DNA of 43,480 nucleotides from Myxococcota bacterium (GTDB taxonomy: Bacteria > Myxococcota > XYA12-FULL-58-9 > JALHOP01), in the NCBI GenBank assembly GCA_041288095.1, contig JBGGMJ010000067.1, positions 1-43,480 of the forward strand, read 5' to 3'. Each line of letters begins with the position of its first letter. The first letter of the stretch is position 1. Positions 4,468 to 43,480 of the stretch are shown in pieces. The notes under the pieces were generated by a model. The model worked only from the letters and a program-made list of their open reading frames with translations, did no database searches and was not told where the DNA came from. The position numbers were made by a program, and so were the translations under genes.

Positions 4468-4478
4468 CGCGCCGAGAA
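4452..4478 (+). promoter_or_regulatory. sigma28/FliA-like promoter GCAA-N15-GCCGAGAA
   Basis: Matches the TAAA-N15-GCCGATAA architecture and ends 8 nt before ATG 4487. The same motif occurs at 5471 and 26384. Confidence 0.5.
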
Positions 4479-4486
4479 CCGACTCA

Positions 4487-15075: not shown

Positions 15076-15219
15076 CAATGATCGCGCGCCTCATCCGCAC
15101 TGAACGTCGATTCAGCCCATTGGGCCGGCTTTCCCAGCGCTAGACGGGCTCCATCCATCCGCTCGCGGGCCGCCAAGGGTATGTCCTAGGCCGGTTCGAG
15201 CATTCTGGTGGGATGGAGC

Positions 15220-17106: not shown

Positions 17107-20100
17107 GCGTTCAGCAAGCGCAGCCGCTCGACGCTGAAGTTGCCGCGTAGCCGTCGGGCCAGCGGCGAGGCGAGCAAGACCTCCACCATGTCGTCGGGCA
17201 AGTCGGCGGTGACCGATTGCAGGAGCTCCATGGCGCCCGTGAGCTGCGCCGCGCCGGCGTCGGTGCCACGCTCCAGGCGGCCGAGCTGCAGCCGAGCCTG
17301 GACCACCAAGAGACGGGCGCCCTGCTCCTGCGCCCGACGCAACGCCCTCTCGAGGCACTCGCGGGCACGAGGCTCGTCGCCATGGGCGCGCAGCACCGAC
17401 GCCCCGAGCAGATCCATGGGCGCCTCGAGAAAAGCGAGGGCACCGGTGCTGACGGCGTTGCGCAAGGCGGTGTACAGCCCCAGCGCGTCGCCGTGGCGGC
17501 CGAGGGACAGGGCGCACTGGCCGCACAGCAGCAGCAGCACCGCCTCGTCGGCCGGATCCTCGAGGGTCTTCAAAAGCGGACCGACCCCTTCGAGAAAAGC
17601 GGCGGAGGACTCGGTTGCGCCGAGGCGGGCGTCGAGGCCGGCCTTGACTCCGCCGGCGAGGGCGGTCAGCACCGCGTCCGTCTTGGCGACAGGCGAGCCG
17701 AGGACGTTCTCGAGCGCGCTCGAAGCGCCCGTGAGGTCGCCCATCCAAGCGAGCGCGAAGCCGAGCGACGCCAGCGCCACCATCGCCGCGCGCACGTCGC
17801 CGCTCGCTTCGGCGGTGTCGATGGCTAGTGAAAGCGACATCTGCGCCGCGCGGAAATCCCCCAGCATGGTGCGCACGAAACCGATGTCGGCGAGGCACGC
17901 CGATTCGTGGGCACGGGCGCGCAAGCTGCGCACGATCTCGAGGCTCGAAGTGTAACGCTCGATCGCGGCATCGAAGTGGCCCTGGCGCAGGCGCAAGTGG
18001 CCGAGCTCGCGCAGCACGCCGGCTTCGCGGAGACGATCACCGCTCGAGCGGACGCCCTTCAGGCCCGCGAACAAGGCACGGCGCGCCGCGTTCATGCGGC
18101 CGGCGCGGGCGAATCCGCGCGCGAGCACGGCGCTCGCCTTGGCCACCGCCGACGGATCGCCGATGGCGCGAGCGAGCTGCAACGCACGCTTGGCGTGACG
18201 CACCGAGCTCGCGAGCTGGCCCATCCGACGGGACAGGCGCGCCTGCTCGAGCATCACCTCGACCGAAAGCGTGAGCGCCTCGTGCACCGCGGCGGTCGGC
18301 GCTTGAACGGCATCGGCGAGGTTCAAGCTCTTGTCGAGAATGGCCTGCGCCCGCGCCAGACGCTCGCCGGCGACGACGTGCTCGCCGGCCGAGATCGCCA
18401 CGGCGGCCTGGATGCGCAGGGCCGCGGCGGTGAACATCGGTGTGTCGTCATCCACCAGGCTCAGGGCGAGGGCCGCGTGGCGCGCGGCTTCCACGGTCTC
18501 CCCGGAGGCCAGGAGCGCCTGTGCCAAGCCCAAGCTCGCCTCGATGGAGGTGACGATGTCGCGGCCGCGCGTCTCGATCAGCGCGGCGCGGTACCAGGTC
18601 ATGGCGCGCTGGATGTCGCCCGTCCGCGTGAGCGATCGTCCGATACGCGCGGCGATGGTAGCCCCGCGCGGGTCACGCGCTCCTTCGAGTCGTTGGTAGG
18701 CATGGTTGTAGTAGTCGACGGCCCGCTTATCCGAGAAGACACGGGCAGCGCGGTCCCCGGCCTCGATGGCGATGGTGATGGCCTTGGCATTGTCGCTGCC
18801 GCGCAAGAGGTGCTCGATGAGCTCCGGCGTCGGCTCGCCGGCGGAGCCACCGAGCATGGCGGCGGCGCGGTCGTGCAGGCGTTGCAAGAGGTCGGCCGGC
18901 GCGACGTCATAGAGCATGTCGCGCAGGAACCGCCGCGAGAAGATGTAGGTCGGGCTCTGCGTGGCATGCGCGGCCGCGAGGAACCCCTGGTGCGACAGCT
19001 CGGCGAGCGCCTTCTGCGCCTCCCCGACGTCATCGCCGGTGAGCGCGGCGACGGCTCCGGCGTTGATGCGCTCCCCCAGCACCGCGGCGGCGGAGGCGAC
19101 CCGGGCGAGTGGCTCCCGCAGCGCCTCGGCGCGTGGACGCCAGGTAGAGCGCGCATCCGGTCGTCCGCGATAGCGACCGCCGGTGAACATCATCTTGCCG
19201 TGACGACGCGTCAAGAGACCGTCCATGAAGAAGCCCGCCAGCGTCCGCTCGATCAGCGTCGGCTCGCCACGGCCGTCGGCGAGCAGGCGCAGCAACGCCG
19301 GCTGCGGCAAGCGCAAACCCTGGACCCGGTGCGCCACCAACGAAGCCACGGACTCCTCGTCGAGGCGTTCGAGGCGCATCACGGTCGCTTCATCGCCGAG
19401 CGGCGATACGGCATCCTCGGAAGCGCAGACGATGAAGAGCGAGGTGCCGACCCGGTCGCGCGCCATCGCCTCGACGACCTGCAGCGCGATTGGCTCCGCG
19501 CGCTGAATGTCGTCCATGAGCAGCGCCGTCGGCTCGTCGGCGAAGGCGTCGACCAGGAGAGTCGAGAGCCGTGCCACGAACATCGAAGGGTCGCGGTTCG
19601 CGAGGCTGGTCAAGGCATCGCGGCCGCGCGTCCAATCGGACGTCACCTCGGCGACGACGTCGGGCCGCAGCGCGTGAGCCGCGCGCAAGATGCGGTCGAG
19701 CGGCGCATCGGGTGCCCGTGAGGTGCGAAAGTGCGCGACACGGAACCCTTCCGCGCAGAGCGACGCGCCGAGCTCGCGCAGCAAGGGTGTCTTGCCGGCG
19801 CCTTCGCGACCGAGGAGAGCCACGGCATGCGGCGTCCGCTTGCGCTTCACTTCGCGCGCCAGAGCCACGAGGCGGCCGAGCTCGCGTGGTCGGTGCGAGA
19901 CGGCGCCGCCGCGCAACATGCGCTCGATCGTCGTTTGCTCGTCACGCGGCGTGAGCCCCAACCCCTCGCAGCGCGCCAGAGCGGAAGCAGCCTCGAAGGC
20001 GCTGTTGTAGCGTCGCGCTGGGTCCGGCTGCATGAGGCACATGACGAAGTCGGCGAAGTCGCGCGGCACCAACGGGTTCACTTGCATCGGCGACACCGGC

Positions 20101-20738
20101 AGCGCCACGTGCCGGCGGGCGACCCGAGCGAGGTCGTCGTGCGTCGCGTCGGGCACGAGCGCTTCGTACAGCATGACGCCGAGGCCGTAGAGATCGGCGC
20201 GGCCGTCGACGATATCTCCACGCGCCACCTCCGGAGCCATGTACGGCAAGGTGCCGCCGGTGATGCCGGCGGTCGCTCCACGCGTGGCGAGGCCGAAATC
20301 GATGAGGCGCGCCACGCCCGCCTGCCCTTCACCCGCCACGAGCACGTTGCGTGGCTTCAAGTCGCGATGGACTATGCCGCGCAAATGCAGGGTCGCGAGC
20401 GCCTCGAGCACCTGCATGGCGACGATGGCGATGACCTCGGGCTGCTGGCGCCGAGCGAAGATCTCGAAGTCGACGCCGTCGACCAGCTCGAGCGTATAAT
20501 AAGGTAAGCCGACGCTGCTGACGCCGAAGTCGTAGGCGCGGGCGACGTGCGGATGCCGCACTTCGGTGAGCAGGCGGTACTCGGCCTCGAGCGCCCGGCG
20601 CGCGTTCTTGGAGTCGGCGATCTTGAGCGCCCGACGCACGTCATGGAGCGCGTCCCACACGTCGAGGACCCGGGACTTGCTGCCCCGGCCCAGCTCGCGC
20701 TGGATCCAGAAACGCGACTCGACGCCGAGCTCAGACAT
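17103..20738 (-). CDS. Ser/Thr protein kinase fused to a STAND/AAA_16-type NTPase and TPR-like (MalT-type) repeats
   Basis: Kinase motifs GRGSKS, RALK, HRDLKPRN, DFG, GTLPYMAPE, DLYGLG. Walker A GREGAGKT, Walker B LLMDDIQRAE. Ala-rich TPR helices at the C-terminus. Start placed at MSELG to avoid overlapping ileS. Confidence 0.88.
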   Translation of the reverse strand: MSELGVESRFWIQRELGRGSKSRVLDVWDALHDVRRALKIADSKNARRALEAEYRLLTEVRHPHVARAYDFGVSSVGLPYYTLELVDGVDFEIFARRQQPEVIAIVAMQVLEALATLHLRGIVHRDLKPRNVLVAGEGQAGVARLIDFGLATRGATAGITGGTLPYMAPEVARGDIVDGRADLYGLGVMLYEALVPDATHDDLARVARRHVALPVSPMQVNPLVPRDFADFVMCLMQPDPARRYNSAFEAASALARCEGLGLTPRDEQTTIERMLRGGAVSHRPRELGRLVALAREVKRKRTPHAVALLGREGAGKTPLLRELGASLCAEGFRVAHFRTSRAPDAPLDRILRAAHALRPDVVAEVTSDWTRGRDALTSLANRDPSMFVARLSTLLVDAFADEPTALLMDDIQRAEPIALQVVEAMARDRVGTSLFIVCASEDAVSPLGDEATVMRLERLDEESVASLVAHRVQGLRLPQPALLRLLADGRGEPTLIERTLAGFFMDGLLTRRHGKMMFTGGRYRGRPDARSTWRPRAEALREPLARVASAAAVLGERINAGAVAALTGDDVGEAQKALAELSHQGFLAAAHATQSPTYIFSRRFLRDMLYDVAPADLLQRLHDRAAAMLGGSAGEPTPELIEHLLRGSDNAKAITIAIEAGDRAARVFSDKRAVDYYNHAYQRLEGARDPRGATIAARIGRSLTRTGDIQRAMTWYRAALIETRGRDIVTSIEASLGLAQALLASGETVEAARHAALALSLVDDDTPMFTAAALRIQAAVAISAGEHVVAGERLARAQAILDKSLNLADAVQAPTAAVHEALTLSVEVMLEQARLSRRMGQLASSVRHAKRALQLARAIGDPSAVAKASAVLARGFARAGRMNAARRALFAGLKGVRSSGDRLREAGVLRELGHLRLRQGHFDAAIERYTSSLEIVRSLRARAHESACLADIGFVRTMLGDFRAAQMSLSLAIDTAEASGDVRAAMVALASLGFALAWMGDLTGASSALENVLGSPVAKTDAVLTALAGGVKAGLDARLGATESSAAFLEGVGPLLKTLEDPADEAVLLLLCGQCALSLGRHGDALGLYTALRNAVSTGALAFLEAPMDLLGASVLRAHGDEPRARECLERALRRAQEQGARLLVVQARLQLGRLERGTDAGAAQLTGAMELLQSVTADLPDDMVEVLLASPLARRLRGNFSVERLRLLNA

Positions 20739-20842
20739 GGGAGGGACGCATTGGGTAACACGTGGCCGGAAAAACGCCACGGGTATCGGTGACCACGCCA
20801 TCGTTGACCTCACGTGGCGCAAGTGCGCATAGGGACGGCCGT

Positions 20843-23662
20843 ATGTCGGACGCACAGTCGACCAAGTCGGATCCGTACCGCGCTACCCTGAACCTGCCGA
20901 CCACGACGTTCGCGATGAAGGCGAACCTCGCGACCAAAGAGCCGCAAATTCAGGGCCGTTGGCAGCAGCTTGGCCTGTACGAGACCTTGGTGCAGCGCGA
21001 AAGCCCGCGCGGCCCGTTCGTCTTCCACGACGGACCCCCGTACGCCAATGGCCCCATCCACATCGGCCACCTGCTCAACAAGATCTTGAAGGACATCGTC
21101 GTGCGCAGCCGCGTCATGCGCGGCCACTGCGTCGACTACGTGCCGGGGTGGGATTGCCACGGCCTTCCCATCGAGCACAAAGTCTTGAAGGAGCTGGGCG
21201 CCGAGGCCAAGAACCTCTCGACCATCGAGGTCCGCAAGCGCTGCCAAGAGTACGCGGCGAGCTACGTTCAGACCCAAGGCCAGCAGATGCAGCGCTTGGG
21301 AACGCTCGCGAACTACGCCCACCCTTACCTCACCATGGCGCCGGCCTACGAAGCCGGCGTCCTCGAGGTGTTCTCGACCCTCATCGAGCGCGGGCTCGTC
21401 TACCGAGATCTCAAGCCGGTCCACTGGTCGATTGCGAACCGCACCGCTTTAGCGGACGCTGAGCTCGAGTACATGGATCGCAAGGATCCGAGCATCTACG
21501 TCCTCCTGCACGCGAGCTTGCCGAAACACGGCGCCGTGGAGCTCATGATCTGGACGACGACGCCGTGGACGCTGCCCGCGAACCTCGCGGTCGCGGTGCA
21601 TCCTCGGGGCAAATACGGCGTCTACGACGTCGAGCTCGACGGCAAGCGACGCAAGATCGTGGTTGTGGAAGAGCTGGCCGAGAAAGTCTTCGCTCTGCGC
21701 TCGGTGGCGCACGACAAGCTCGAGACTCTCACCGGCGAGCAGCTGGTCGGCACCGAATACCAGCACCCGTTCGTCGAGCGGCGCGGCAAAGTGCTGCCCG
21801 CCGACTACGTCACGTTCGAAGACGGCACCGGGCTCGTCCACACCGCGCCGGGCCATGGTGTCGAGGATTACCAGACGGGCCTAAAGAACGGGCTCGACAT
21901 TTATTGTCCAGTCGGTCCCGATGGGAAGTACGACGCCACGGTCCCCGAATGGCTGCGTGGCGTCGACATCTGGAAGGCGAATCCGCAAATCGTCGAGCGC
22001 CTGAAAGGCTCGGGACACCTCTTCCACCACCTCGAGTTCACGCACAGCTACCCGCACGATTGGCGGAGCAAGACACCGGTGATCTTCCGGGCGACCGAGC
22101 AGTGGTTCATCGGCGTCGACAAGCCGTTCGATGCCGACGGCAAGAGCGCATCACTGCGCGAGCGCGCCATCACCGCCACCGAGAACACCATCCAGTTCGT
22201 TCCCGACTGGGGCAAGAACCGCCTGCGCGGCATGCTCGAGGCGAGACCCGACTGGTGCATCAGCCGCCAGCGGGCCTGGGGCCTGCCGATCCCGGCGTTC
22301 ATGACAGAAGACGGCAGGGTGCTGCTCACGCCGGCCACGGTTCGCACCGTCGCCGCCAAGATCCGCGAAAACGGATCCGACGCGTGGTTCTCACGGTCGG
22401 CGGAGGAGCTCCTCGCCGGCTACGACGCCAAGAACGACCCGCACGCGCCTGACTGGATGAAGAGCAACCCGCCGGCCTTGGCGAAGGGCAACGACATCTT
22501 CGATGTCTGGTTCGAGTCCGGCTCGTCTTGGAACGCCGTGCTGCGGCAGCGTCAAATCGGTTACCCAGCGCAGCTCTATCTCGAGGGCTCCGACCAGCAC
22601 CGCGGTTGGTTCCAGACCTCGCTGCTCCCGGCGCTCGGCGCGACCGGCCGCCCGCCCTTCCAAACCCTGCTCACGCACGGCTTCATGGTCGACGGCTCCG
22701 GTCACAAGATGAGCAAGTCGGCTGGTAACGCCCTCGAGGTCGACAAGCTACTTGCGCAGTTCGGCGCCGATATCTGCCGCTGGTGGGTCTCGAGCCTGAA
22801 CTACGCGCACGACATCAAGGTCGACCTCGAGTACTTCAAGACGGCGAGCGAGGAGTACCGCAAGGTGCGCAACACCCTGCGCTTCCTGCTCGCGAACCTC
22901 GACGGCTTCGATCCCGCGCAACGCCTGCCGGTCGCCGACGCCGACAAGCACGGCATCGACGCGTGGGCCATGCAGGAGCTCGACGCGCTCATCACCGCGG
23001 TTCAGGACGGCTACGACACCTACCAGTTCAAGAAGGTGCGGGAGTGCGTCTTCAACTTCTGCAACGACACGCTGTCCGCGGTCTACCTGGCCGCTATCAA
23101 GGACCGTCTCTACTGCGAAGCCAAGGACTCCCCGAAGCGCCGCCGCACGCAGACCGTGATCTACGACATCGTCGACGCGCTGGTGCGAATCTTGGCGCCG
23201 ATCCTCGTGCACACCGCCGATGAGGCGTATCTCGAGCTCATCCGCATGCCGACCGAGCATGCCACCGCCTGTGTCCACACCTTGGTGCTCCCGGAGCCGC
23301 TGGGCGGTCAGCGCAACCCCGCGTGGGACGAGGTCATGGCGCTGCGCCACCGCGCCCTGAAAGCGCTCGAGGACGCCAAAGCGGGCACCGGCATCGCCAA
23401 CCCTTTGGACGCCGGAATCTCCGTGAAGCTGTCCACCAAAGCACACGGTGTGCTCGCGGCCTACGGCGGCGACCTCGCCGATCTCTGCGGCGTCAGCCGC
23501 TTCACCCTCCTGGCCCACGACGGCGACGAGGTCATCGCCATCGAGGATCTGCGCAACGAGCCACGCTGCCAGCGCTCGTGGAAGCGCGACGGCACCGTGA
23601 AGCAGCGCTCGGACGGCGGTTTGTTGTCGCAGCGCGACGCGGAAGTCCTGGGCCTGCAATGA
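20843..23662 (+). CDS. ileS: isoleucine--tRNA ligase (type 1 architecture)
   Basis: YRATLNLPTTTFAMKANL, HDGPPYANGPIHIGH, PGWDCHGLPIE, IWTTTPWTLPAN, GTGLVHTAPGHG, DWCISRQRAWG, YLEGSDQHRGWF, KMSKS. Confidence 0.97.
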   Translation: MSDAQSTKSDPYRATLNLPTTTFAMKANLATKEPQIQGRWQQLGLYETLVQRESPRGPFVFHDGPPYANGPIHIGHLLNKILKDIVVRSRVMRGHCVDYVPGWDCHGLPIEHKVLKELGAEAKNLSTIEVRKRCQEYAASYVQTQGQQMQRLGTLANYAHPYLTMAPAYEAGVLEVFSTLIERGLVYRDLKPVHWSIANRTALADAELEYMDRKDPSIYVLLHASLPKHGAVELMIWTTTPWTLPANLAVAVHPRGKYGVYDVELDGKRRKIVVVEELAEKVFALRSVAHDKLETLTGEQLVGTEYQHPFVERRGKVLPADYVTFEDGTGLVHTAPGHGVEDYQTGLKNGLDIYCPVGPDGKYDATVPEWLRGVDIWKANPQIVERLKGSGHLFHHLEFTHSYPHDWRSKTPVIFRATEQWFIGVDKPFDADGKSASLRERAITATENTIQFVPDWGKNRLRGMLEARPDWCISRQRAWGLPIPAFMTEDGRVLLTPATVRTVAAKIRENGSDAWFSRSAEELLAGYDAKNDPHAPDWMKSNPPALAKGNDIFDVWFESGSSWNAVLRQRQIGYPAQLYLEGSDQHRGWFQTSLLPALGATGRPPFQTLLTHGFMVDGSGHKMSKSAGNALEVDKLLAQFGADICRWWVSSLNYAHDIKVDLEYFKTASEEYRKVRNTLRFLLANLDGFDPAQRLPVADADKHGIDAWAMQELDALITAVQDGYDTYQFKKVRECVFNFCNDTLSAVYLAAIKDRLYCEAKDSPKRRRTQTVIYDIVDALVRILAPILVHTADEAYLELIRMPTEHATACVHTLVLPEPLGGQRNPAWDEVMALRHRALKALEDAKAGTGIANPLDAGISVKLSTKAHGVLAAYGGDLADLCGVSRFTLLAHDGDEVIAIEDLRNEPRCQRSWKRDGTVKQRSDGGLLSQRDAEVLGLQ

Positions 23663-33892: not shown

Positions 33893-36106
33893 TCAGGTGG
33901 GGAGTGACGCTCTGGCTCTCGCTATCAGTTTGAGAACGTTGACCAATTGAGCGGGCGTCGCGAGCCGGTAAGGCGCCAGGGTAACGGCGCGCCCGATCTT
34001 CACGGCGTACGCGGAGGCCGGCAGAGTCGCGAACAGATCCTCGTCGGTGCGGTCGTCACCCGCGGCGAAGAGGAAATCGAGCTCGCCGAACCGCTGCATC
34101 ACCGTCTTCAGTGCTCGACCCTTGTTCACGCCCAGCGGCCGGATCTCGATGACCTTGTGCCCGCGCACCACTTCGAGCGGTGATTTCGCGAAGGCCTCGT
34201 TGAGGTGGTTCACGAGCTCGCGCGCCTGCCAGCTCCCGAAGCCCGGCTCGACGTTGCGATAGTGCCAGGCGAGGCTCGCCGACTTCCGCTCGACGAACGA
34301 GCCCTTCGAGCGCAGCACGAAATCATCGAGAATGGCCCGCACCGCGTCGCGCCAACCGAGATCGAGATCCGGGAAGAGATGCTCCCAGGTCGTTGCTCCG
34401 GCCGCGCGGTACGACAAGCCGTGCTCGGCGATGAGGTGCACCGGCACGCCGGCGAAGAAATCACCGAGCGATTGATGCTCGCGGCCGCTCACCACGACGA
34501 CGTCGAGCCCGCGGTTCGAAGCGAGTGCCGAGAGTACTTCGATGAGGCGAGGGGTCGGCCGTGCTTCCTCGGGTGTGCGCGCCAGCTCGACGAGGGTGCC
34601 GTCGTAGTCGAGCGCCAAGAGCGCGTGCCGTGCCTTGGCGCAGCGCTCGACGCAGCCGCGCACCCACTCGCGCGACACTTCGGTCCTTGCCTCGCTCGCC
34701 CCGGCGAGAAAGTCATTGAGCTCGTTGGTGGCGGCGTCGAAAGCGGCGAGAAAGCGCCGGACCCACCAGTGAACGTCCGACGTCGCGACGCGATGGCGCA
34801 ATGCTTTCATGCGCAGCGCGGCTTCATCGGGCGCCATGGTGAGCGCGCGCTCGATGACGGCGGCGGTCCCTTCGACGTCCCAGGGGTTGTGCAGCAGTGC
34901 CTCGCCGAAGCCCGATGCCGCGCCCGCGAACTCGGAGAGCACCGCGACACCGCTGTCGTCGAGTCGCGAAGCAACGTACTCCTTGACGACGAGGTTCATG
35001 CCGTCGCGCACGGGTGTCACCAGCATGACGTCGGCCACGAGATACAGCGCCGACAGCTCCTCGGGGGTGACGGAGCGATGAAGATAGTGCACCGGCACCA
35101 TGCCGTTCTGCTCGAGCGCGCCGTTGGCGGCGCCGACCAGCCCCTCGACCTCTTCGCGCAGCGACTTGTACGCCTCGATGCCGTCGCGTGACGGCACCGC
35201 GAGCTGCACCAGCACGACCTTGTCGCGGAGCGCGGGCCGCGTTTCGAGCAAACGGCGGAAGGCGCGGATCTTGAGTGGAATGCCCTTGGTGTAATCGAGT
35301 CGGTCGACGCCGAGGACAATCTTGCGTTGGCGAAACTCCTTGCGCAGCTCGGTGACTCTCTGGGCGCGCTCTGGAGTGCTCGCGAGCTGTTGATGCAACG
35401 AGACGTCGACACCGAGGGGAAAGACGCCGATGCGCGACGGCTGTCCGCTTTCGCGGGTACCGTCGTCGTTGAACTCGAGGCCGATGATGCGGCGGAAGCT
35501 CGATACCAGATGGCGCGCGAAGTTGTACGTGTGCACGCCGATGAGGTTCGCGCCGGCGAGCCCGCGCAAGATCTCCTCGCGGCGCGGCAACATGCGGATC
35601 ACCTCGGACGAGGGGAACGGAATGTGCAGGAAGAAGGCGATCGGTACTTCCGGCAAACGTTCACGCAACAGCGCCGGCAAGAGCATCAGGTGATAGTCGT
35701 GCACCCAGATGCGGTCGCCAGGCCGTACGCGCGCGGCGATCACTTCGGCGAAGCGCTCGTTGACGCGACGATAAGCTTCGAAGTCCTCCGCGTCGAAGGC
35801 GACGTGATTCAGCAGGTAATGGAACAGCGGCCAGAGAACGTTGTTCGAGTAGCCTTCGTAATGACGCTTGGCTTCGTCGGCGTCCACCTCGACGGCGACC
35901 AGGCGTTGCTTGGCGAGCTCGGCCTGGACGTCCTCGGAAAGCGGACCACCGCCGAGGCTGCCGATCCACTCGCCTTCACCAGCGTCATGGACCGGGCCGA
36001 GACCCGCGATGAGGCCGCCGCTGCTGCGGACGAGCGTCGGCGGACCGCCGTCTTGGTGTTTGATCGACACTGGTAGCCGGTTCGACACCAGCAACAGTCG
36101 ACCCAT
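33893..36106 (-). CDS. otsAB: bifunctional trehalose-6-phosphate synthase/phosphatase (OtsA-OtsB fusion)
   Basis: [58 protein letters not shown] motifs LDYDGTL and AGDDRTDED. Confidence 0.95.
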
Positions 36107-36112
36107 GCGGAA

Positions 36113-36176
36113 CCCCTCCCCTACTCGCAGGCTAACTAGGATTAGCCCGCGAATGCAATTTGGGGAGGGTAGGGGT
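36113..36176. repeat. REP-like palindromic element / long hairpin filling the SDR-otsAB intergenic region
   Basis: Outer arms CCCTCCCC/GGGGAGGG; inner stem on the minus strand (AT)TCGCGGGCTAA-tcctag-TTAGCCTGCGA(GT). Confidence 0.65.
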
Positions 36177-36181
36177 GAAGC

Positions 36182-37024
36182 TTATTTGCCGCCGCCGCCG
36201 CTCTCGCTGTCAGCTCTTGCCGGCCGTGCGCGCACGTTTGCTATGGCGGTGTTCACGGCATCGTTGACCCAATCCGCGATCGCCGGCCACGGCTCTTCTT
36301 TCTCCTCGACCATCCAGCGCGCCTCGCCCGGTTGCTCTTCCCAACGCTCTCGCGCCAAGAGCCGCGTCAAGCGCTCGCCGCAAACCGCCGGGTCTTCCCA
36401 CCGCCGCTTCACCTGCCGGAGCAACCACCCCATGAAGCCGCGCCGCGCGCCGAGCTCGGTGCGCACGACGCCTGGGTGGACTACGAGCACGTCGATCTCG
36501 GGATGGGCCTTCGCGACCGTGCGCATCGCCACGGCCTGCCCCAGCTTGGTGTCGCAATAGGTGCGGATGCCGGAGAAATCGTCGCCGCGTGCCGTGCGAT
36601 CGGCGTCGAACCGACCCTTCACCATGAGCCCCGCCGCGTTCACCATGATGCGCTTCACGACACCTGCCCGCAAAAGCGGATCCTGCAAGACGAGCGGCGC
36701 CACCATGTTGACCATGTAGCTCATCTCGTAACCGTCGACGTTGAGAACACGCCGCGACGGCCAGAGGCCGGCGTTGTGCACGAGGGTCGCGCCCGGCCGC
36801 ACCGACTTGAGCAGGCGCTCGCCCAGGCTCCTCGCCGAATCGAGCGATGACAGGTCACCCGGAACGGCTTCGGCGGCCTTGCCCTGCTTTGCCAACTCGC
36901 GGACCACCCCACCCAGCGCCGGCACGTCTCGCCCGACGACCACCAGGCGATAGGTCTTCGGAACGGCTAGGGCGAGAGCCTTGCCGATGCCGCCGGTGGC
37001 CCCGGTAATCACCAAATCCTGCAT
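36182..37024 (-). CDS. short-chain dehydrogenase/reductase (retinol-DH-like subgroup)
   Basis: VITGATGGIG, LVHNAG, catalytic YCDTK, VHPGVVRTEL. Start at MQDLVITG (37024). Confidence 0.88.
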   Translation of the reverse strand: MQDLVITGATGGIGKALALAVPKTYRLVVVGRDVPALGGVVRELAKQGKAAEAVPGDLSSLDSARSLGERLLKSVRPGATLVHNAGLWPSRRVLNVDGYEMSYMVNMVAPLVLQDPLLRAGVVKRIMVNAAGLMVKGRFDADRTARGDDFSGIRTYCDTKLGQAVAMRTVAKAHPEIDVLVVHPGVVRTELGARRGFMGWLLRQVKRRWEDPAVCGERLTRLLARERWEEQPGEARWMVEEKEEPWPAIADWVNDAVNTAIANVRARPARADSESGGGGK

Positions 37025-37084
37025 ACGAGGGCGGGAGCCTACCAGCGTTTGACTGGCAACAGCCACGTGATACGAGTGCCGCCC

Positions 37085-37708
37085 ATGAGCCAGAGAGGCT
37101 TCGGGAAGACGGTTCTCGGGTGGTTCGTGGTCGACGAGGACGGCGATAAGTCGACCGACGCCGACGCCCTGATCGCGAAGTACGCCGCACAAGAGGTGCA
37201 GGCGCCGCCGGTAGAGCTCAAAGGTCCACTCCCCCAAGTCGTGGACGGCAACGTCGACTTCCAGAAGGTCTACGCCGCCGCCGGTCTCGCCGAGGACGAG
37301 CGAGGCCGCGTGGGCAAAGCCCAGGAGCTCCTGCGCTCGCTACCCGCCGAAACGTCGGCGCCGGTGAAGAAGCAGATCGTCGAAGCCTCCTTGAAAGCCT
37401 TCGGCGTCCCGACCGACAAGATCATCGAATCGGCGGTCTCGCAGATCGAAGCACTCGAAGCCTTCATCCGCGCCGGTCAGGCCGACACCCAGAAGATCTT
37501 GAGCGATGGCGCAACCCGCGTCGCCGACCTCGAGCGCGAGATCGCCGAGGTCAAGAAGGTCATGCAGCAGGCGGTCACCGATCAAGAGGTGCGCACCGGC
37601 AAGACGAACAACGAGAAGCTCGCGGTGCAGCAGGTCCTCGAGTTCTTCGGCGTCGATGCCGTCGCCAAAGTCGTCAGCGATTCACCCAAGCTTCATCAGC
37701 CTAGCTAA
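37085..37708 (+). CDS. hypothetical protein with N-terminal amphipathic helix and C-terminal coiled coil; first gene of the PspA operon
   Basis: MSQRGFGKTVLGWFVV amphipathic start; heptad region ADLEREIAEVKKVMQQAVTDQE; ends 15 nt before pspA. Confidence 0.8.
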   Translation: MSQRGFGKTVLGWFVVDEDGDKSTDADALIAKYAAQEVQAPPVELKGPLPQVVDGNVDFQKVYAAAGLAEDERGRVGKAQELLRSLPAETSAPVKKQIVEASLKAFGVPTDKIIESAVSQIEALEAFIRAGQADTQKILSDGATRVADLEREIAEVKKVMQQAVTDQEVRTGKTNNEKLAVQQVLEFFGVDAVAKVVSDSPKLHQPS

Positions 37709-37723
37709 TCAGGAGCACACGTC

Positions 37724-38431
37724 ATGGCCAGCGCTAGCGCCTTCGCCCGTCTCGCCAACTTGTGGCGCGGTTTCGTCAGTCTCTGGATCTCGGACGTCGA
37801 GAAGAACCATCCCGAGATCGCCTACGAGAACGCCATCAACGGCATGGTCGAGAAGTACGCCGCGTTGAAGCGCGCGACCGCCGCGATCATCCGCCGCCGC
37901 GAGGACATCGAAGAGCGGAACAAGAACGAGACCAAGGAGCTCGCTCAGGTGACCCTCGACCTGAACACGGCCGTCGAGACCGGTCAGGACGACCTCGCGC
38001 TCGTGCTCATCCAGAAGAAGAACGCGCTCGAGACGTCGATTGCGGAGCTGCAGGCCGAGCTCGGTGTCGCGGTGAAGGACGCCGACGGCGCCAAGGCTTC
38101 GCTCATGCAGGTGCAAGCCGAGATCAAGAAGCTCAAGGCCGAGAAGGACAACATGCTCGCCAAGATGCACTCGGCGCAGGCGCGCTTGCGCATCCAAGAG
38201 CAGCTCGAGGGCTTGTCGGTCGATGCCGAGGTCAAGGCGCTCGAGAACGTGCGCGACCACATCAAGAACCTCGCGTCCGAGGCAAAGCTCGGCGCCGAGC
38301 TCGGTGGCTCGTCCCTCGATCAACGCCTATCGCAGCTGCGCCAGCAGAGCGGTGACGTCACTTCGCGCCAGCAGCTCGAGCAGCTCAAGGCCGCGGCCGC
38401 CGCCAAAAAGGCCGGCACGCGGACCATGTGA
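37724..38431 (+). CDS. pspA: PspA/IM30/Vipp1 family protein (bacterial ESCRT-III superfamily)
   Basis: N-terminal amphipathic helix [26 protein letters not shown], then long coiled coils, [51 protein letters not shown]. Confidence 0.88.
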
Positions 38432-38477
38432 TTAGATTCGCCGTTTTTTGCGACATCAGGGGAACAACGAAAGCGCC

Positions 38478-40139
38478 ATGAAGCTCACTCCATTTGCCAA
38501 GTTCTTCGTCACCCTCATCGTCCTCGCCGTCGTCGGCTACACCGGCTGGCACTACTTCGGCGCGGAGATCCGCTGCTGGTCGTCGCCCGAGAGCTGCAAG
38601 CCCGCGACGCCGCCGACCAACGGCGGTCCGACCGCTAACGTGGACACCAATCACGTCGGCAAGGACGATTTCAGCGGCCTCGCCAACGCGCCAGCCGACC
38701 CATCGCGCAGCGCTCCGGTCGCCGCGGGCGCCAACGTCACCGGCAACCGCTGGCAGCGCCCGCTGGTCGTCGGCATCAACACCTGGGCGGGTCACGCGCC
38801 CGGTGTCGTCGCAAACCTTGGCTTAGCCGCCGGCAACGTGAAGTCGATCTACAAGAAGAACTACAACCTCGACGTCGTCTTCAAGATCATCGACGACCCG
38901 GCCGCCAAATTCGCCGCCTTCCAGGCCGGTCAAATCGACATCATGTGGGACACGGTCGACTCGTGGGCTCGCGAAGCCTCGATCCTGGCCGAGAAGAGCG
39001 TCGCCGCCAAAGCGATCATCATGCAGGACTGGTCGCGCGGCGGTGACGGCGTCGTCTCGCTCGCGTCCATCAAGAGCGTCGAGGATCTCGCCGGCAAGAA
39101 GATCGCGACCACCGAGTTCACGCCGTCGCACTGGCTGCTCCTCTATTTGCTCTCGCAGTCGGGCCTCACCCCCGACCAGAAGAGCGCCATCGAGAAGAGC
39201 CTGGTGATCACCCAGGACGCGCCCGCCGCCGCCGCCATGTTCAAAAGCGGTAAGGTCGACGCCGCCGTCACCTGGGAGCCGGATCTCTCGGGTGCGGTCG
39301 AAGCCCGCGGCGCGGAAGCGCACATCCTGGTGTCGACGACCGCCGCGACGAACGTCATCGCGGACTGTCTGGTTGCTCGCCAAGAGGTCATCGATCAGTC
39401 GCCGGGCAGCATCGCCGCCTTCGTCGCCGGCTGGCTCGACGGCATCGACTACATGAAGCAGGACCCCTCGGGCTCGAACGCCGTCGTCGGTGACGCGCTC
39501 AAGCTCGACAACGACACGGTATCCGGCATGCTGTCGGGCCTGAAGCTCACGCCCTTCGCGGACAACGCGTTGTTCTTCGGGCTGGGTGGCACCAAGGCGC
39601 ACGCCGAGACCTTGTTCGATACCGCCTTCCGCATCTGGCGCAAGAAGGGCGTGGTCACCCGCGCCGTCGGCGCCTCCGACTGGTTCGACTCGCGCTTCGT
39701 GGCCGCTTTGGCGGACAAGTACAAGTCACAGATGCAAGTGGCCGAGAAGGCGCTGCCCGCGCGCAAGGTGTCGGCCAAGGACACGCCGATCATCAACAAG
39801 ACCCTGTCGATCAACTTCACGCCGGGCTCGGACGAGATCATGCCCGGGTCGCTCTTCACCTTGGACTCACTCGGCGAGACCATGGTGTCGTTCGGCAACA
39901 CCTATCTGCGCGTCGAGGGCAACACCGACTCGACCGGCAACCGCCAGTCGAACATCGCTCTGTCGCAGAAGCGCGCGACCGCGGTGCAGGGCTACCTCGA
40001 GAAGACGTTCAACATTCCCAAGGAGCGCTTCCAGACGCAGGGCCACGGTCCTGACAACCCGGTGGCGGCAAACACCACCGAGGCCGGCCGCCAATTGAAC
40101 CGCCGCACCGACATCAAGGTGATCCTCGCTACGCAATAA
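38478..40139 (+). CDS. membrane-anchored NMT1/SsuA-type substrate-binding protein fused to a C-terminal OmpA-like peptidoglycan-binding domain
   Basis: N-terminal TM helix FFVTLIVLAVVGYTGW; SBP motifs INTWAGHAPG, DWSRGGDG, DLAGKKIA, DAAVTWEPD; OmpA motifs VEGNTDSTG, NIALSQKRATAV, GHGPDNPVA, NRRTD. Confidence 0.88.
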   Translation: MKLTPFAKFFVTLIVLAVVGYTGWHYFGAEIRCWSSPESCKPATPPTNGGPTANVDTNHVGKDDFSGLANAPADPSRSAPVAAGANVTGNRWQRPLVVGINTWAGHAPGVVANLGLAAGNVKSIYKKNYNLDVVFKIIDDPAAKFAAFQAGQIDIMWDTVDSWAREASILAEKSVAAKAIIMQDWSRGGDGVVSLASIKSVEDLAGKKIATTEFTPSHWLLLYLLSQSGLTPDQKSAIEKSLVITQDAPAAAAMFKSGKVDAAVTWEPDLSGAVEARGAEAHILVSTTAATNVIADCLVARQEVIDQSPGSIAAFVAGWLDGIDYMKQDPSGSNAVVGDALKLDNDTVSGMLSGLKLTPFADNALFFGLGGTKAHAETLFDTAFRIWRKKGVVTRAVGASDWFDSRFVAALADKYKSQMQVAEKALPARKVSAKDTPIINKTLSINFTPGSDEIMPGSLFTLDSLGETMVSFGNTYLRVEGNTDSTGNRQSNIALSQKRATAVQGYLEKTFNIPKERFQTQGHGPDNPVAANTTEAGRQLNRRTDIKVILATQ

Positions 40140-40145
40140 CGGGGG

Positions 40146-40949
40146 TTGGTAGTGGGCTACGAAGCGTTCGCACTGCGTGCGCCATTGCCTCGTGCATGGC
40201 GCACGCCGCTCGCCCTCGCAGCGCCGCTGCTCTTGCTCGGCGTCTGGTGTCTGCTCAGCTACACCGACATGGTCTCGTCGGCGTTTCTGCCCTCGCCGAC
40301 CGAGGTGGTGCGCGGGCTCTTGCAGCTCTTCTTCGAGAAGCAGCTCGGGCTCGCCATCGCGACGTCCACCAAACGCATCGTCATCGCCTTCCTGCTCGCC
40401 GCGGCGGTCGCCCTACCCTTGGGTGTCGCCATGGGCGCGTTCGAGCCGGTGAACCGCTTCTTCGATCCGGTGCTCGCGCCGCTGCGCTTCATGCCGATCT
40501 CGGCGTTCATCCCTCTGCTGATCGTTTGGTTCGGCATCGACGAGTCGCAGAAGATCGCCTTCTTGTTCCTCGGGGTGTTCGTCTACCTGCTGCCTGTCGT
40601 GGTCACCGCCATTCGGGCGGTACCACAGGAGTACGTGGACACGGCGTACACGCTCGGCGCCACGCGCTGGCAGGTCATCCGCACCGTGCTCCTGCCGTCC
40701 GCTTCCCCGGAGATCGTCGACTCGTTCCGGGTCATGAACGCCATCGCCTGGACCTACGTCATCTTGGCGGAGGCGGTGAATCCGGGAACGTCGCTCGGTT
40801 ATTTGATCCAGCTGGCGTACAGCCACTCGAAACCCGAGTGGAGCTTTGCGGGCCTCGTCGTCATCGGGGGCGTGGGTCTACTCACGGACGTCGTGTTGCG
40901 CGCGCTGTCCGCTGTAGCGTTTCGTTGGCGGGAGGACTCTCGTGGCTGA
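40146..40949 (+). CDS. ABC transporter permease (SsuC/TauC/NrtB type)
   Basis: FLPSPTEV, PLRFMPISAFIPLLIVWFGIDE, EAA-like loop EYVDTAYTLGATRWQVIRTVLLP, AWTYVILAE. Exact start (TTG or GTG) uncertain. Confidence 0.92.
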   Translation: MVVGYEAFALRAPLPRAWRTPLALAAPLLLLGVWCLLSYTDMVSSAFLPSPTEVVRGLLQLFFEKQLGLAIATSTKRIVIAFLLAAAVALPLGVAMGAFEPVNRFFDPVLAPLRFMPISAFIPLLIVWFGIDESQKIAFLFLGVFVYLLPVVVTAIRAVPQEYVDTAYTLGATRWQVIRTVLLPSASPEIVDSFRVMNAIAWTYVILAEAVNPGTSLGYLIQLAYSHSKPEWSFAGLVVIGGVGLLTDVVLRALSAVAFRWREDSRG

Positions 40950-41739
40950 TCCTCTCAAAATCGGCGTCAAGAACCTATCGATGTCGTACATGTCGCGCGC
41001 CGGCGATCCAGTGCACGCGGTCGACGACATCTCCTTCGAAATCGCCAACAAGCCGGGTGCCGGAGAGATCATCGTCTTCCTGGGACCCTCGGGCTGCGGC
41101 AAGTCGACGATCTTGAAGGCGTTGGCGGGGCTCGTCGCGCCGAGCAAAGGCAGCGTGCAAATCGACGGCAAGAACGTCGAGGGCACGAGCCGCGATCGCG
41201 GCATGGTCTTCCAGCAGTACACGTCGTTTGCCTGGCTCACGGTCCGCGAAAACGTCGAATACGGCATGCGCCTAGCGGGCGTGCCGGCCGAGGAGCGCAA
41301 GAAGCGCGCTCTGGAAACACTCGAGAAGGTCGGCCTGCGGGACTTCGCGGGGCGCTACCCCAAGGAGCTCTCGGGCGGCATGAAGCAACGCGTAGCCATC
41401 GCGCGAACGCTCGTGAACCGGCCGTCGCTGGTGCTCATGGACGAGCCGTTCGGCGCGCTGGATCCGCAGACCCGCTGGGGCATGCAGTCGCTGCTGCTCG
41501 ACATCTCGAAGACGCTCGACAACACCATCGTCTTCGTCACCCACGACGTCGCCGAAGCCGTTTACCTCGCCGACACCGTCTTCGTGCTCTCGTCACGGCC
41601 CGCCAAGATCTTGAAGCGCATGGACATGCCGCAGTTCGCGACGCGCGACATGGCGCTGAAGTCGACGAAGGAGTTCCGCGACCTCGAAGCGCAGCTCCTC
41701 ACGCTCCTCCACGGCCAAGGGAACGTGCGCATCTCATGA
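40942..41739 (+). CDS. ABC transporter ATP-binding protein (SsuB/TauB/NrtD type)
   Basis: GPSGCGKST, MVFQQY, LSGGMKQR, LMDEPFGALD, FVTHD. Confidence 0.95.
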   Translation: MADPLKIGVKNLSMSYMSRAGDPVHAVDDISFEIANKPGAGEIIVFLGPSGCGKSTILKALAGLVAPSKGSVQIDGKNVEGTSRDRGMVFQQYTSFAWLTVRENVEYGMRLAGVPAEERKKRALETLEKVGLRDFAGRYPKELSGGMKQRVAIARTLVNRPSLVLMDEPFGALDPQTRWGMQSLLLDISKTLDNTIVFVTHDVAEAVYLADTVFVLSSRPAKILKRMDMPQFATRDMALKSTKEFRDLEAQLLTLLHGQGNVRIS

Positions 41740-42521
41740 GCGCCGACGACGACGAGAAGCCGCCGTACTTCAAGTACGCGTTCTCGAACATCTACAACCT
41801 CACCATGCTTGGCGGCTTCGCCTCCGCGGCGGTGCTGACGCAGAACTGGTGGCTCGGCGTCGCGGGCGCGGGTGCCGAGGTCATTTGGATGCTCTTCGCG
41901 CCGGACTCGCGGCTGCTGCGGGCCAAGTGGTTCGACAAGCGCCATCAAGAGGAGCTGGCAGCCAAGGACAACGCCAAGTGGCAGGACAAGCTGCGCCGCT
42001 TGTCGCGCGACCATCACATGCGCGTCGCCAGCTTGCAGGCCAAGCGTCACAAGATCGTCGCGCTTGCGGGTGAGAACCAGGCACTGACGAGCAAACTGCT
42101 GAAGGCGGAGATCGCGAAGCTCGATACGCTGATGGGATCGTTTCTCGACCTCCTCATCTCGGTCGACCGCTACGAGAGTCACCTGCAGAGCTCGAACCTC
42201 GACAAGCTCGAAAAGCAGATCCGCGAAAACGAACGCCAGCTGGAGAAAGCCGAAGGCGTCGCCCGCGAGATGGCTCAGAAGAACCTCGCCATCCTGATGA
42301 AGCGGCGCGAGAAGCTCGGCGAGATCATGACGTTCGTGGCGCGCGCCCGCTCGCAGCTGCAGCTCATCGAAAACACCTTCGACCTCCTCGCCGATCAGAT
42401 CGTCACCATGCGCTCGCCACAGGATCTCGACGCCCAGCTCGACGAGCTGATGGATGGTGTCGAGGCGGTGAAATCGACGGCGCGTGAAACAGAGCACCTC
42501 CTCGAAGCGGTGGCACGATGA
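41736..42521 (+). CDS. two-TM-anchored coiled-coil protein (XpaC-like topology)
   Basis: Hydrophobic hairpin at residues ~20-55, then long heptad repeats. ATGA overlap with the ABC ATPase stop. Confidence 0.75.
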   Translation: MSADDDEKPPYFKYAFSNIYNLTMLGGFASAAVLTQNWWLGVAGAGAEVIWMLFAPDSRLLRAKWFDKRHQEELAAKDNAKWQDKLRRLSRDHHMRVASLQAKRHKIVALAGENQALTSKLLKAEIAKLDTLMGSFLDLLISVDRYESHLQSSNLDKLEKQIRENERQLEKAEGVAREMAQKNLAILMKRREKLGEIMTFVARARSQLQLIENTFDLLADQIVTMRSPQDLDAQLDELMDGVEAVKSTARETEHLLEAVAR

Positions 42522-43480
42522 ACCCAGTTTGGGCCGATGAGCTGAAGCGACGTTACCTGCGCGGTGAGTCCAGCCAATTCGTGCTGCACGGCAACGTTCA
42601 CGACCTGGTGCTGCACGGCGGCAAGCTCCACGATCTCGTCGACTATCTGGGCCGCGAGCTACTCGCGCCGTCGAAAGACGTGGTGCTCGAATACAACCTC
42701 TCGTCAGGCGTGCGCTTCATCAAGAAGGAAGCGCAGATCGACGGGCTCGAAGAGCTGTTCTTGCCGCGCTCGCCGGACAAGGTGCTGCCGGCGCTGGAGA
42801 AGCTCTTGCTCACCACGAACCGCGTCGCGGTGATCGTGAGCTACGCCGAGATGATTGCTCCGGCGGCCGATGTCTCTTTCTCCACGGAAACGGACAGGCA
42901 GAGCGTCATCACCCTGCACCGCTGGTCGCTCTCGCCCATTCTCGAGAAGAGCGACAATGTCGTCGTGCTGCTCACCGAGAATCTCTCGGAGCTGCACACG
43001 AAGCTCGTGGGCAACCCACGCACCGCGACGCTCGAGATCGGCATGCCCGACGAAGCGGCGCGCGCCGAGGTCATCGCGCATGTCGCGCCCTCGGCGGATG
43101 CCAAGTGGCGCCAGCGTCTCGCCGAGGTCACCGCGGGCTTGAAGGCCGTGCAGCTCAAAGCACTACTCGAGCCGCACGCCGAGATCCCCGACGATCCGAA
43201 GGCGCTGGAAGCGCGCGAGCAATACATCGTCACCTTGCTGGCCAACGCTCCCAACGCGGCGGCGCGCGCCAAGAAGATGGCGCAATTGACCGCGGGCATG
43301 AGCCACGACGAGATTCGCGAGCTCGTTGCGCCGGGCGTGACCGCGAAGGTCGACAACGACGAGCAAGAGCAGCTGCTGCGCCTCATCTACAAGCGCAAGC
43401 GCGAGATCATCGAGCGCGAATGCTTCGGCCTCATCGAGTTCGTCCAGTCGAATCACGACTTCTCGGTGGTCGGCGGCATC
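42518..43480 (+). CDS. AAA+ ATPase, Ycf46-like architecture (partial; runs off the right edge; not in the ORF track)
   Basis: Own translation from the ATG overlapping the previous stop: MNPVWADELKRRYLRGESSQFVLHGNVHDL...VIVSYAEMIAP...LEIGMPDEAAR...LAEVTAGL...KRKREIIERECFGLIEFVQSNHDFSVVGGI. This is open to the edge and ends at the F.xVGG motif that precedes an active AAA domain. Confidence 0.8.
   Translation, partial: MNPVWADELKRRYLRGESSQFVLHGNVHDLVLHGGKLHDLVDYLGRELLAPSKDVVLEYNLSSGVRFIKKEAQIDGLEELFLPRSPDKVLPALEKLLLTTNRVAVIVSYAEMIAPAADVSFSTETDRQSVITLHRWSLSPILEKSDNVVVLLTENLSELHTKLVGNPRTATLEIGMPDEAARAEVIAHVAPSADAKWRQRLAEVTAGLKAVQLKALLEPHAEIPDDPKALEAREQYIVTLLANAPNAAARAKKMAQLTAGMSHDEIRELVAPGVTAKVDNDEQEQLLRLIYKRKREIIERECFGLIEFVQSNHDFSVVGGI

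Follow-up and report, generated by a model that had tools for sequence, protein, structure and literature searches.

The window analysed here is a stretch of 43,480 nt that makes up one complete contig (C67; JBGGMJ010000067.1) in the genome of a Myxococcota bacterium from soil. It closes with seven co-oriented plus-strand open reading frames (ORFs g1-g7, 37085-43480) that run into its end and combine a divergent PspA/IM30 protein with a wall-tethered ABC module, two helical proteins and a tandem AAA ATPase. We read this operon, with a probability of roughly 45%, as a self-contained PspA-based envelope-stress or membrane-repair module that carries its own ATP-driven remodeller, and its occurrence across relatives points to PspA and the ATPase as the core of the cassette. 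A preliminary description of the same DNA had proposed an ESCRT-like membrane-remodelling machine; that interpretation is partly supported overall, the sequences showing a strongly conserved PspA module with a Cdc48-like, not a Vps4-like, AAA motor. Operons of this type have been published before (Ravi et al., 2024, mSystems 9:e00847-23, PMC11237479); the present locus is a real further member and the value of a single window is limited. What is added here is the completion of the operon over two contigs, counts over two phyla, the persistence of the PspA-ATPase pair, the lack of support from sequence for the published Snf7 label of one component, and a conserved tail on PspA. The genes of the operon and the interval in front of it are as follows.

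g1, 37085-37708, plus strand: 207 aa, a family without a name
g2, 37724-38431, plus strand: 235 aa, divergent PspA/IM30
g3, 38448 (TTG) or 38478 (ATG) to 40139, plus strand: anchored fusion of a solute-binding protein (SBP) with an OmpA-like domain
g4, 40146-40949, plus strand: ABC importer permease, TauC/SsuC-like
g5, 40942-41739, plus strand: ABC transporter ATP-binding protein, TauB/SaoA-like
g6, 41736-42521, plus strand: 261 aa, membrane-hairpin helical protein
g7, 42518-43480, plus strand: first 321 residues of the tandem AAA ATPase, open at the contig end
TerB-like gene, 838-1296 of locus L029 (contig C109): PF05099, 41.4 bits against a cut-off of 24.4
ORF, L029:1293-1904, plus strand: 203 aa, no family
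Intergenic interval, 37025..37084, 60 bp: between a divergent short-chain dehydrogenase (SDR) gene (start codon at 37024, minus strand) and g1

The seven co-oriented genes, their spacings and their overlaps, as reported in the preliminary description, were confirmed by a check of the ORFs. Adjacent genes are separated by 15 nt (g1-g2), by 16 or 46 nt depending on the start codon of g3 (g2-g3) and by 6 nt (g3-g4), and the remainder overlap by 8 nt (g4/g5) or 4 nt (g5/g6 and g6/g7). The likely start of g3 is the ATG at 38478; the alignments of its orthologues begin at residues 9-11. Four of the seven products are named by Pfam (g2 PspA_IM30, g3 NMT1/Phosphonate-bd plus OmpA, g4 BPD_transp_1 and g5 ABC_tran), and neither g1, g6 nor the 321 in-window residues of g7 match a Pfam or NCBIfam family. 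The promoter of the operon presumably lies in the 60-bp interval upstream of g1. A sigma-70 consensus scan of 36000-43480 returned 0 sites, promoter and terminator scans gave nothing exceeding shuffled controls, and a search of 35500-43480 matched no Rfam family. The anti-phage models of PADLOC gave generic matches only (MotB/ZorB on the OmpA part, and the ABC and AAA P-loops).

The end of the contig falls within g7. Contig C109, from the same genome, begins with the missing part of the gene, followed by the TerB-like gene and the 203-aa ORF, which completes the ATPase and the operon downstream as the preliminary description had suggested doing. C109 (L029:2-841) encodes ATPase residues 331-600 with 96% identity to the orthologue in genome G001, and the two pieces together have the length of the orthologues (321+279=600 residues). 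Since C67 and C109 share no exact suffix/prefix overlap and the first 10 codons of C109 deviate from the orthologues, the join is drawn from orthologue collinearity and from this agreement in length. Two soil-metagenome contig sets searched with 42000-43480 contained short low-depth pieces, none of which bridges the contig end. In same-genus genomes a 152-aa TerB-like gene comes next after the 600-aa ATPase gene, and after it a 202-aa familyless gene, each overlapping its predecessor by 4 nt. The latter protein, of 202-203 aa (L029 1293-1904, plus strand; L012 5282-5890, minus strand), is found at 72-100% identity in this genus only, with weak matches of 28-32% in loci L103, L107 and L129.

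The PspA protein and its AAA ATPase

On sequence criteria g2 is a divergent PspA/IM30 protein of the bacterial ESCRT-III superfamily. It matches the PspA_IM30 family over residues 7-225 (PF04012, 67.2 bits against a cut-off of 33.9, E 2.1e-18), its residues 7-226 align with solved Vipp1 (E 2e-11), and it is the sole PspA_IM30 match in its own genome, which is 90% complete. The N-terminus lines up with the N-termini of other PspAs (alignment A2) and contains an amphipathic helix (α0) with a hydrophobic moment of 0.46-0.49 in windows starting at residues 4-10.

The C-terminus of g2 reads RTM, which conforms to a pattern of the cassette PspA subfamily as a whole: a variable low-complexity linker followed by [KR][TS][ML]-COOH. 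The tail is present in 49 of the 50 intact cassette PspAs among the 80 loci described below (20/20 from Acidobacteriota and 29/30 from the others), the single protein outside the pattern ending in RTMG, and solo orthologues of PspA carry it likewise. None of the 22 canonical or second-type PspAs in alignment A2 has it (0/22). An independent search among 1.84 billion cluster representatives gave 561 matches at E≤1e-3; of 72 full-length-like proteins among the best 150 of these, the strict tail was found in 25 and the relaxed form [KR][TSNQ][MLIV] in 37, compared with 0/361 control proteins carrying the tail pattern. The passages on the operon in Ravi et al. (2024) do not mention this tail. Because only the ATPase persists alongside the tailed PspA where g1 and g6 are not found, we infer that the tail is a candidate handle for the AAA motor; it could equally serve self-assembly or a reader encoded elsewhere.

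The label of AAA+ ATPase that g7 had been given from the window holds for the whole gene, for which Pfam places PF00004 at residues 347-474 of the 600-aa orthologues (plus a weak AAA_16 match) and on the C109 part in the same genome, and does not hold for the 321 in-window residues taken alone. The operon thus has a classical AAA ATPase of its own. The C109 part carries GPMGTGKT, KWVG, IIDEGD, TNRPD and RAGRLD, all of them conserved across a 66-member family alignment, which we take to be Walker A, the aromatic pore loop 1 (KWVG), Walker B, sensor 1 and the second region of homology with two arginines. With Walker A and B, the aromatic pore loop, sensor 1 and both arginine fingers retained, this second AAA module (D2) has the appearance of a translocation-competent motor. 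Among solved structures its sequence comes closest to the D2 modules of Cdc48/p97/VAT (E 2e-39), and the best 60 of 268 PDB matches consist of Cdc48/p97/VAT, NSF, AFG2/SPATA5, NVL and Rix7, with Vps4 not among them. NCBIfam likewise ranks CDC48 first, the CdvC model reaching 46.8 bits where its cut-off is 650.

The N-terminal 310 residues, which form the in-window part, show a conserved GNVhD at the P-loop position and no GKT. A profile of this module compared with the PDB (E≤10) gave 32 matches, 26 of them to classical AAA ATPases (Rpt2, Rpt5, PAN, CdvC and others) with a best E of just 0.03, and all of these AAA matches cover the region from the sensor-1 strand to the lid. An hhalign comparison of D1 with D2 is collinear in the motifs, but its probability is 1.7%. 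We read the N-terminal module as a degenerate, P-loop-less D1, in agreement with Ravi et al. (2024). Pfam finds neither a MIT nor a Vps4_C domain in the 600-aa orthologue. With these domains missing, the D1 degenerate and the D2 resembling that of Cdc48, the ATPase is not a Vps4 homologue in its architecture.

Conservation and the core of the cassette

In a sample of 41 genomes of relatives, counting the organism's own, the N-terminal part of the ATPase was found in 21 and PspA_IM30 in 26. The order of the seven genes is kept in all three genus-mates, in G025 with g1 relocated behind TerB, and in G034 in pieces. A wider scan with a g6 profile, taking one genome per species, returned 259 loci, of which the best 80 were analysed (38 from Acidobacteriota and 42 mostly from Myxococcota or 'Deltaproteobacteria' metagenome-assembled genomes, MAGs). 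The AAA count was restricted to the 66 loci whose downstream flank reaches 1.9 kb or more, and the upstream counts to the 52 loci whose upstream flank reaches 5.6 kb or more. An AAA gene lies directly 3' of g6 in 53/66 loci, and PspA lies upstream of g6 in 44/52. The ABC ATPase is present in 47/52 loci, the permease and the SBP-OmpA protein in 46/52 each, and g1 upstream on the same strand in 46/52. All seven genes stand in order in 29 of the 46 loci that have both flanks. TerB accompanies 20/31 Myxococcota-side loci and 0/32 Acidobacteriota loci, and g1 has moved behind it in L016 and L133. The preliminary description had named a lack of co-conservation as what would speak against it; the genes are co-conserved as a cassette in both Myxococcota and Acidobacteriota.

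A second, much more divergent cassette type is composed of PspA, SBP-OmpA, permease, ABC ATPase, a g6 homologue and a tandem AAA gene, often with a VWA gene first, and occurs in families f9, f2 and f10 and, as a variant, in f17. The VWA-domain gene precedes it at L023 (102-2753) and L025 (16-708), and L023 has an extra 595-aa familyless protein ahead of the cassette. Five loci from Pyrinomonadaceae (L114, L122, L127, L136 and L146) have a conserved 120-aa ORF after the ATPase, at the position of TerB in Myxococcota, and in three long-contig MAG records (L081, L148 and L150) the tblastn matches to the cassette genes are split into several frame-broken pieces.

The composition of reduced and dispersed cassettes indicates which genes belong together. 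Three loci (L094, L102 and L108) consist of g1-PspA-g6-AAA-TerB with no ABC genes, and in L084 PspA, AAA and TerB are directly adjacent. In five genomes, which belong to three families and are 92-100% complete, PspA (61-74% identity) and the ATPase (45-63%) are retained at separate places; g6 and g1 were not found in them with the queries used, for which the g6 positive control succeeded in 5/5, no ABC-module gene stands beside PspA or AAA in the loci examined, and a conserved neighbour of PspA was not found. In five Polyangia genomes the cassette ends at g6 and the ATPase is encoded elsewhere in all of them, at 61-63% identity in four and, in the fifth (G041), in four frameshifted pieces at 47-72%. 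The type-1 ATPase (E≤1e-80) is present in 12/41 genomes and the type-1 PspA in 11/41, all 11 lying among the 12; the genome with the ATPase and without the PspA, G012, is 84% complete. Because the pair persists in the variants that lack ABC genes, in the dispersed genomes and in the Polyangia cassettes ending at g6, these distributions point to PspA and the ATPase as the core of the cassette.

At two solo ATPase loci (L019 in G033 and L020 in G024) the next genes encode a cyclopropane-fatty-acyl-phospholipid synthase-like protein, a Ser/Thr kinase and an MscS channel, all of them membrane-related.

In the module that we favour, PspA would polymerise on the stressed inner membrane by means of its amphipathic N-terminal helix, and g6, lying in the membrane, would position PspA, the ATPase or both. 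A hexamer of the ATPase would then thread PspA subunits through the D2 pore, so that the polymer is disassembled, recycled or reshaped, an action akin to that of Vps4 on ESCRT-III or of Cdc48 on its clients. The point of engagement would probably be the flexible C-terminal linker of PspA with its terminal [KR][TS][ML]. The wall-tethered ABC importer would act as an accessory input or supply arm that imports or senses a small solute at the membrane-wall interface, and the Myxococcota version would add the TerB-like protein encoded after the ATPase. More tentatively, the cassette may embody an independently evolved bacterial counterpart of the ESCRT-III/Vps4 cycle, in which a Cdc48-derived motor with a dead D1 and an active D2 reads the tail and extracts and recycles PspA, g6 marks the site, and the ABC module links the cycle to the condition of the envelope; we hold this fuller scheme to be less probable than the module in its general form.

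The disassembly of PspA rods has been attributed to unnamed chaperones or to PspF (Junglas et al., 2024). The cassette offers a direct candidate for taking apart bacterial PspA/Vipp1 polymers, since in two phyla one PspA subfamily is accompanied by an apparently competent classical AAA translocase, and a simple testable prediction on the C-terminal tail of PspA follows from it. If the proposal is true, the coupling of ESCRT-III-type polymers to motors of the Cdc48 family would be either convergent or very ancient, and the cassette would provide a minimal system for reconstitution in vitro.

Several observations weigh against a dedicated PspA remodeller. The tail is retained in cassettes whose AAA gene is not adjacent, and so is not discriminating on its own; the PspAs of second-type cassettes are without the tail, yet have an AAA. 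Tandem AAA paralogues of the same architecture are found with no PspA beside them, adjoining PLD and SLT/LysM genes in L024 and a TonB receptor gene in L027, which means that the AAA family is not exclusive to PspA. The ATPase has no MIT domain, the part through which Vps4 recognises ESCRT-III, and its active module resembles Cdc48, so that the analogy with Vps4 is functional only. The relatives are kin and the 80 loci were chosen for having g6; the co-occurrence counts therefore overstate independence, and they show conservation of a neighbourhood, not independent events. Finally, solved PspA hydrolyses ATP weakly on its own, which modulates its rods (Junglas et al., 2024), so that an external motor is not strictly required.

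Some of the same observations fit a different role for the motor. The ATPase may serve membrane-protein extraction or quality control in the manner of Cdc48, Msp1 or a protease-less FtsH, with g6 as its adaptor or main client and PspA merely sealing the bilayer. The kinship of D2 with the D2 of Cdc48/p97/VAT and the paralogues that stand apart from PspA are both consistent with this, and g6 and the AAA gene form the tightest pair of the cassette, judged by their adjacency in the scan and their 4-nt overlap in the window. The five dispersed genomes argue against it, since they keep the AAA and PspA orthologues where g6 is not found; the cassette holds no protease or degradation partner, and the type-1 AAA and type-1 PspA match in phyletic distribution at 11/12. 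We regard an extraction motor as a possible but unlikely explanation, and the PspA remodelling module as the better account of the pair.

The transport and membrane components

g3 is composed of an N-terminal membrane anchor, a Pro/Ala-rich linker, a solute-binding domain of the NMT1/SsuA/TauA type and a C-terminal OmpA-like domain. Its one hydrophobic segment is N-terminal (residues 13-31), and the OmpA-like domain (PF00691, residues 457-552, 59.2 bits against a cut-off of 27.2) is predicted to bind peptidoglycan. Matches to PDB sequences include the OmpA-like PA0833-PD, YiaD and Pal and the binding proteins TauA, SsuA and NrtA. The permease g4 matches BPD_transp_1 (PF00528, E 1.8e-19) and g5 matches ABC_tran (PF00005, E 3.1e-34). 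By NCBIfam the transporter parts are nearest to TauABC/SsuABC/SaoAP, and all three fall under the equivalog cut-offs: g3 scores 85.9 bits with SsuA_fam (cut-off 163.5), g4 131.9 bits with TauC (cut-off 342) and g5 221.7 bits with TauB (NF008421, cut-off 357). As a consequence no known substrate can be assigned to g3-g5.

In the preliminary description the ABC unit senses or transports something at the membrane-peptidoglycan interface. The natural variants L094, L102 and L108 do without the ABC genes, which argues against a role as the core sensor, and on gene content the ABC arm appears to be accessory. The same variants bear on the view that the cassette is primarily a transporter for an envelope-derived or stress-protective solute, whose assembly, regulation or membrane protection PspA and AAA would serve. 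The complete type-I importer set (SBP, permease and ATPase, of the TauABC/SsuABC/NrtABC kind), its retention in 46-47/52 loci and the presence of the ABC binding protein ProX at certain archaeal ESCRT loci (Makarova et al., 2024, mBio) are compatible with a transport function. Against it stand the three variants, which keep g1-PspA-g6-AAA-TerB with no ABC gene, the five genomes in which PspA and AAA are kept and, in the loci examined, neither adjoins an ABC-module gene, the sub-cut-off scores that leave no substrate assignable, and the pinning of the binding protein to membrane and wall, which would be atypical of a plain nutrient importer. A transporter with PspA and AAA as its attendants thus seems somewhat less likely again than an extraction motor.

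g6 has a Gly/Ala-rich N-terminal hairpin (approximately residues 17-55) with an invariant Glu48, followed by a helical domain of about 200 residues (alignment A1) that is probably cytoplasmic. Its earlier description as a protein with two transmembrane (TM) segments stands in part: a weak hairpin is present and becomes clearer in distant homologues, and in g6 itself the hydropathy stays under the 1.6 Kyte-Doolittle threshold over 19 residues. The family has at least 445 homologues, none of them named. The counterpart of g6 in the second cassette type, at 17-25% identity, is recovered by hhalign with a probability of 99.1% (E 1e-18, 249 columns), which establishes that the method works at that distance. 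A g6 profile compared with PDB sequences gave noise only. A protein-atlas lead to Rv2743c/PspM (score 0.88) was rejected, the Rv2743c hidden Markov model (HMM) giving no match to g6, and the small proteins upstream of the paralogous AAA genes (200 aa in L024 and 174 aa in L027), considered as counterparts, are not g6-like.

The TM protein of these operons has been named a membrane-associated Snf7 (Ravi et al., 2024), which would favour the bolder form of the preliminary reading, an ESCRT-like scission or vesiculation machine in which g6 is a second, membrane-anchored ESCRT-III subunit that co-polymerises with PspA while the AAA drives constriction; PspA rods can form vesicle-like structures in vitro (Junglas et al., 2024). 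We consider this machine very improbable, since the Snf7 HMM (PF03357) has no match in the genome at E≤1, 0/51 members of the g6 family match Snf7 or PspA_IM30 at E≤1 (Pfam gives only scattered coiled-coil noise), hhalign of g6 with 32 PspAs gives a probability of 1.4% against the 99.1% for distant g6 homologues, and none of the structure-atlas neighbours of g6, an atlas model serving as a lead only, carries an ESCRT-III family. The published Snf7 label of g6 is thus not supported by sequence methods.

In g1 the N-terminus bears a conserved motif, GWGKTVLGWFVV, and a helical C-terminal domain is likewise conserved, the acidic linker between the two being variable (alignment A3); the protein has at least 1747 homologues, none named. 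Comparisons by hhalign with PspA (probability 0.5%) and with g6 (0.6%) were negative, and a g1 profile found only coiled-coil noise in the PDB. On these profile comparisons g1 and g6, which had been presented together as two coiled-coil partners, are two unrelated families.

Related systems and neighbouring genes

The preliminary description had guessed that comparative surveys might have noted such neighbourhoods, and the operon type is indeed described by Ravi et al. (2024), who report PspA with a two-AAA-domain protein whose N-terminal AAA is inactive, and longer operons that add a membrane-associated Snf7, an ABC ATPase, a permease and a PBPB-OmpA protein. All of the components that they name are present in one co-oriented cluster here and in relatives. 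Their account agrees with ours in gene content, in the tandem AAA, whose N-terminal copy they describe as inactive and we read as degenerate, in a binding protein predicted to bind both solute and peptidoglycan, and in the proposal of ATP-dependent membrane remodelling linked to solute transport, which they compare with Snf7/Vps4. The passages on these operons contain no g1 family, TerB-like gene, PspA tail or counts. Popp et al. (2022) do not mention the cassette; 'OmpA' has 0 occurrences there, and AAA occurs in the reference list only, in neither case in an entry on the cassette. Full-text literature searches turned up no experimental study of this operon, in keeping with the earlier statement that it lacks functional characterisation.

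With the ESCRT-III/Vps4 systems (CdvB/CdvC; Snf7/Vps4) the cassette shares a gene for a polymer of the ESCRT-III superfamily beside that for a AAA ATPase of the classical clade whose pore loop is intact, and a polymer subunit with a flexible C-terminal end and a conserved short motif. It differs in having no MIT and no Vps4_C domain, two AAA modules instead of one, and a D2 nearer to that of Cdc48. A 2025 review (PMC7619361) states that a Vps4-like ATPase appears to be absent from bacteria, and Makarova et al. (2024) confine Vps4-containing ESCRT systems to archaea and eukaryotes. The haloarchaeal pair described in the latter work is similar in that a PspA-like gene lies directly upstream of a MIT-less classical AAA ATPase related to Cdc48/VAT; that ATPase has a double-psi barrel N-domain of the VAT type, whereas a degenerate AAA D1 occupies this place here, and the archaeal pair is without an ABC module or OmpA protein.

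The Psp/Lia systems (pspF-pspABCDE of E. coli, liaIH of B. subtilis and clgR-pspA-pspM-pspN of M. tuberculosis) have in common with the cassette a PspA/IM30 protein with an amphipathic helix and a small membrane partner encoded nearby, although PspM of M. tuberculosis and g6 are not matched by the HMM comparison given above. As originally noted, the operon has no pspF, pspB or pspC, none of the seven products matching these families in Pfam or NCBIfam, and no LiaI/LiaF or regulator genes were seen in it. PspF is a AAA+ regulator of the bacterial enhancer-binding protein (bEBP) type and not a classical-clade unfoldase. Two adjacent PspC-domain matches lie elsewhere in the genome (contig C112, 29405-29788), and a PspC-type partner may therefore exist in the organism too. 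The TauABC, SsuABC and NrtABC importers share the binding-protein fold and the permease and ATPase families with g3-g5; here the scores are below the equivalog cut-offs, and the binding protein, itself membrane-anchored, continues into an OmpA-like wall-binding domain.

Divergently upstream of the operon lie the SDR gene (36182-37024, minus strand) and a gene for a fused trehalose-6-phosphate synthase/phosphatase of 737 aa (33893-36106, minus strand; Glyco_transf_20 plus Trehalose_PPase). Both neighbours are also found in the three genus-mates and may hint at a shared context of osmotic stress. Approximately 1.6 kb downstream of the last operon gene there is a small PilZ-domain gene (L029 on C109, 3548-3895, minus strand), and in G025 a PilZ gene (L016, 2873-3175, plus strand) stands directly upstream of PspA; these could reflect a link to c-di-GMP or a coincidence. 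Elsewhere in the window are a gene for a calpain-family (Peptidase_C2) cysteine protease (4445-5449, plus strand), a 632-aa Ala/Arg/Pro-rich ORF (15208-17106, plus strand) that lies in the most GC-rich stretch (GC 0.70-0.75) and was not selected by the GC3-based picker, and a gene for a Ser/Thr kinase of 1250 aa that also has AAA_16 and TPR domains (17103-20855, minus strand).

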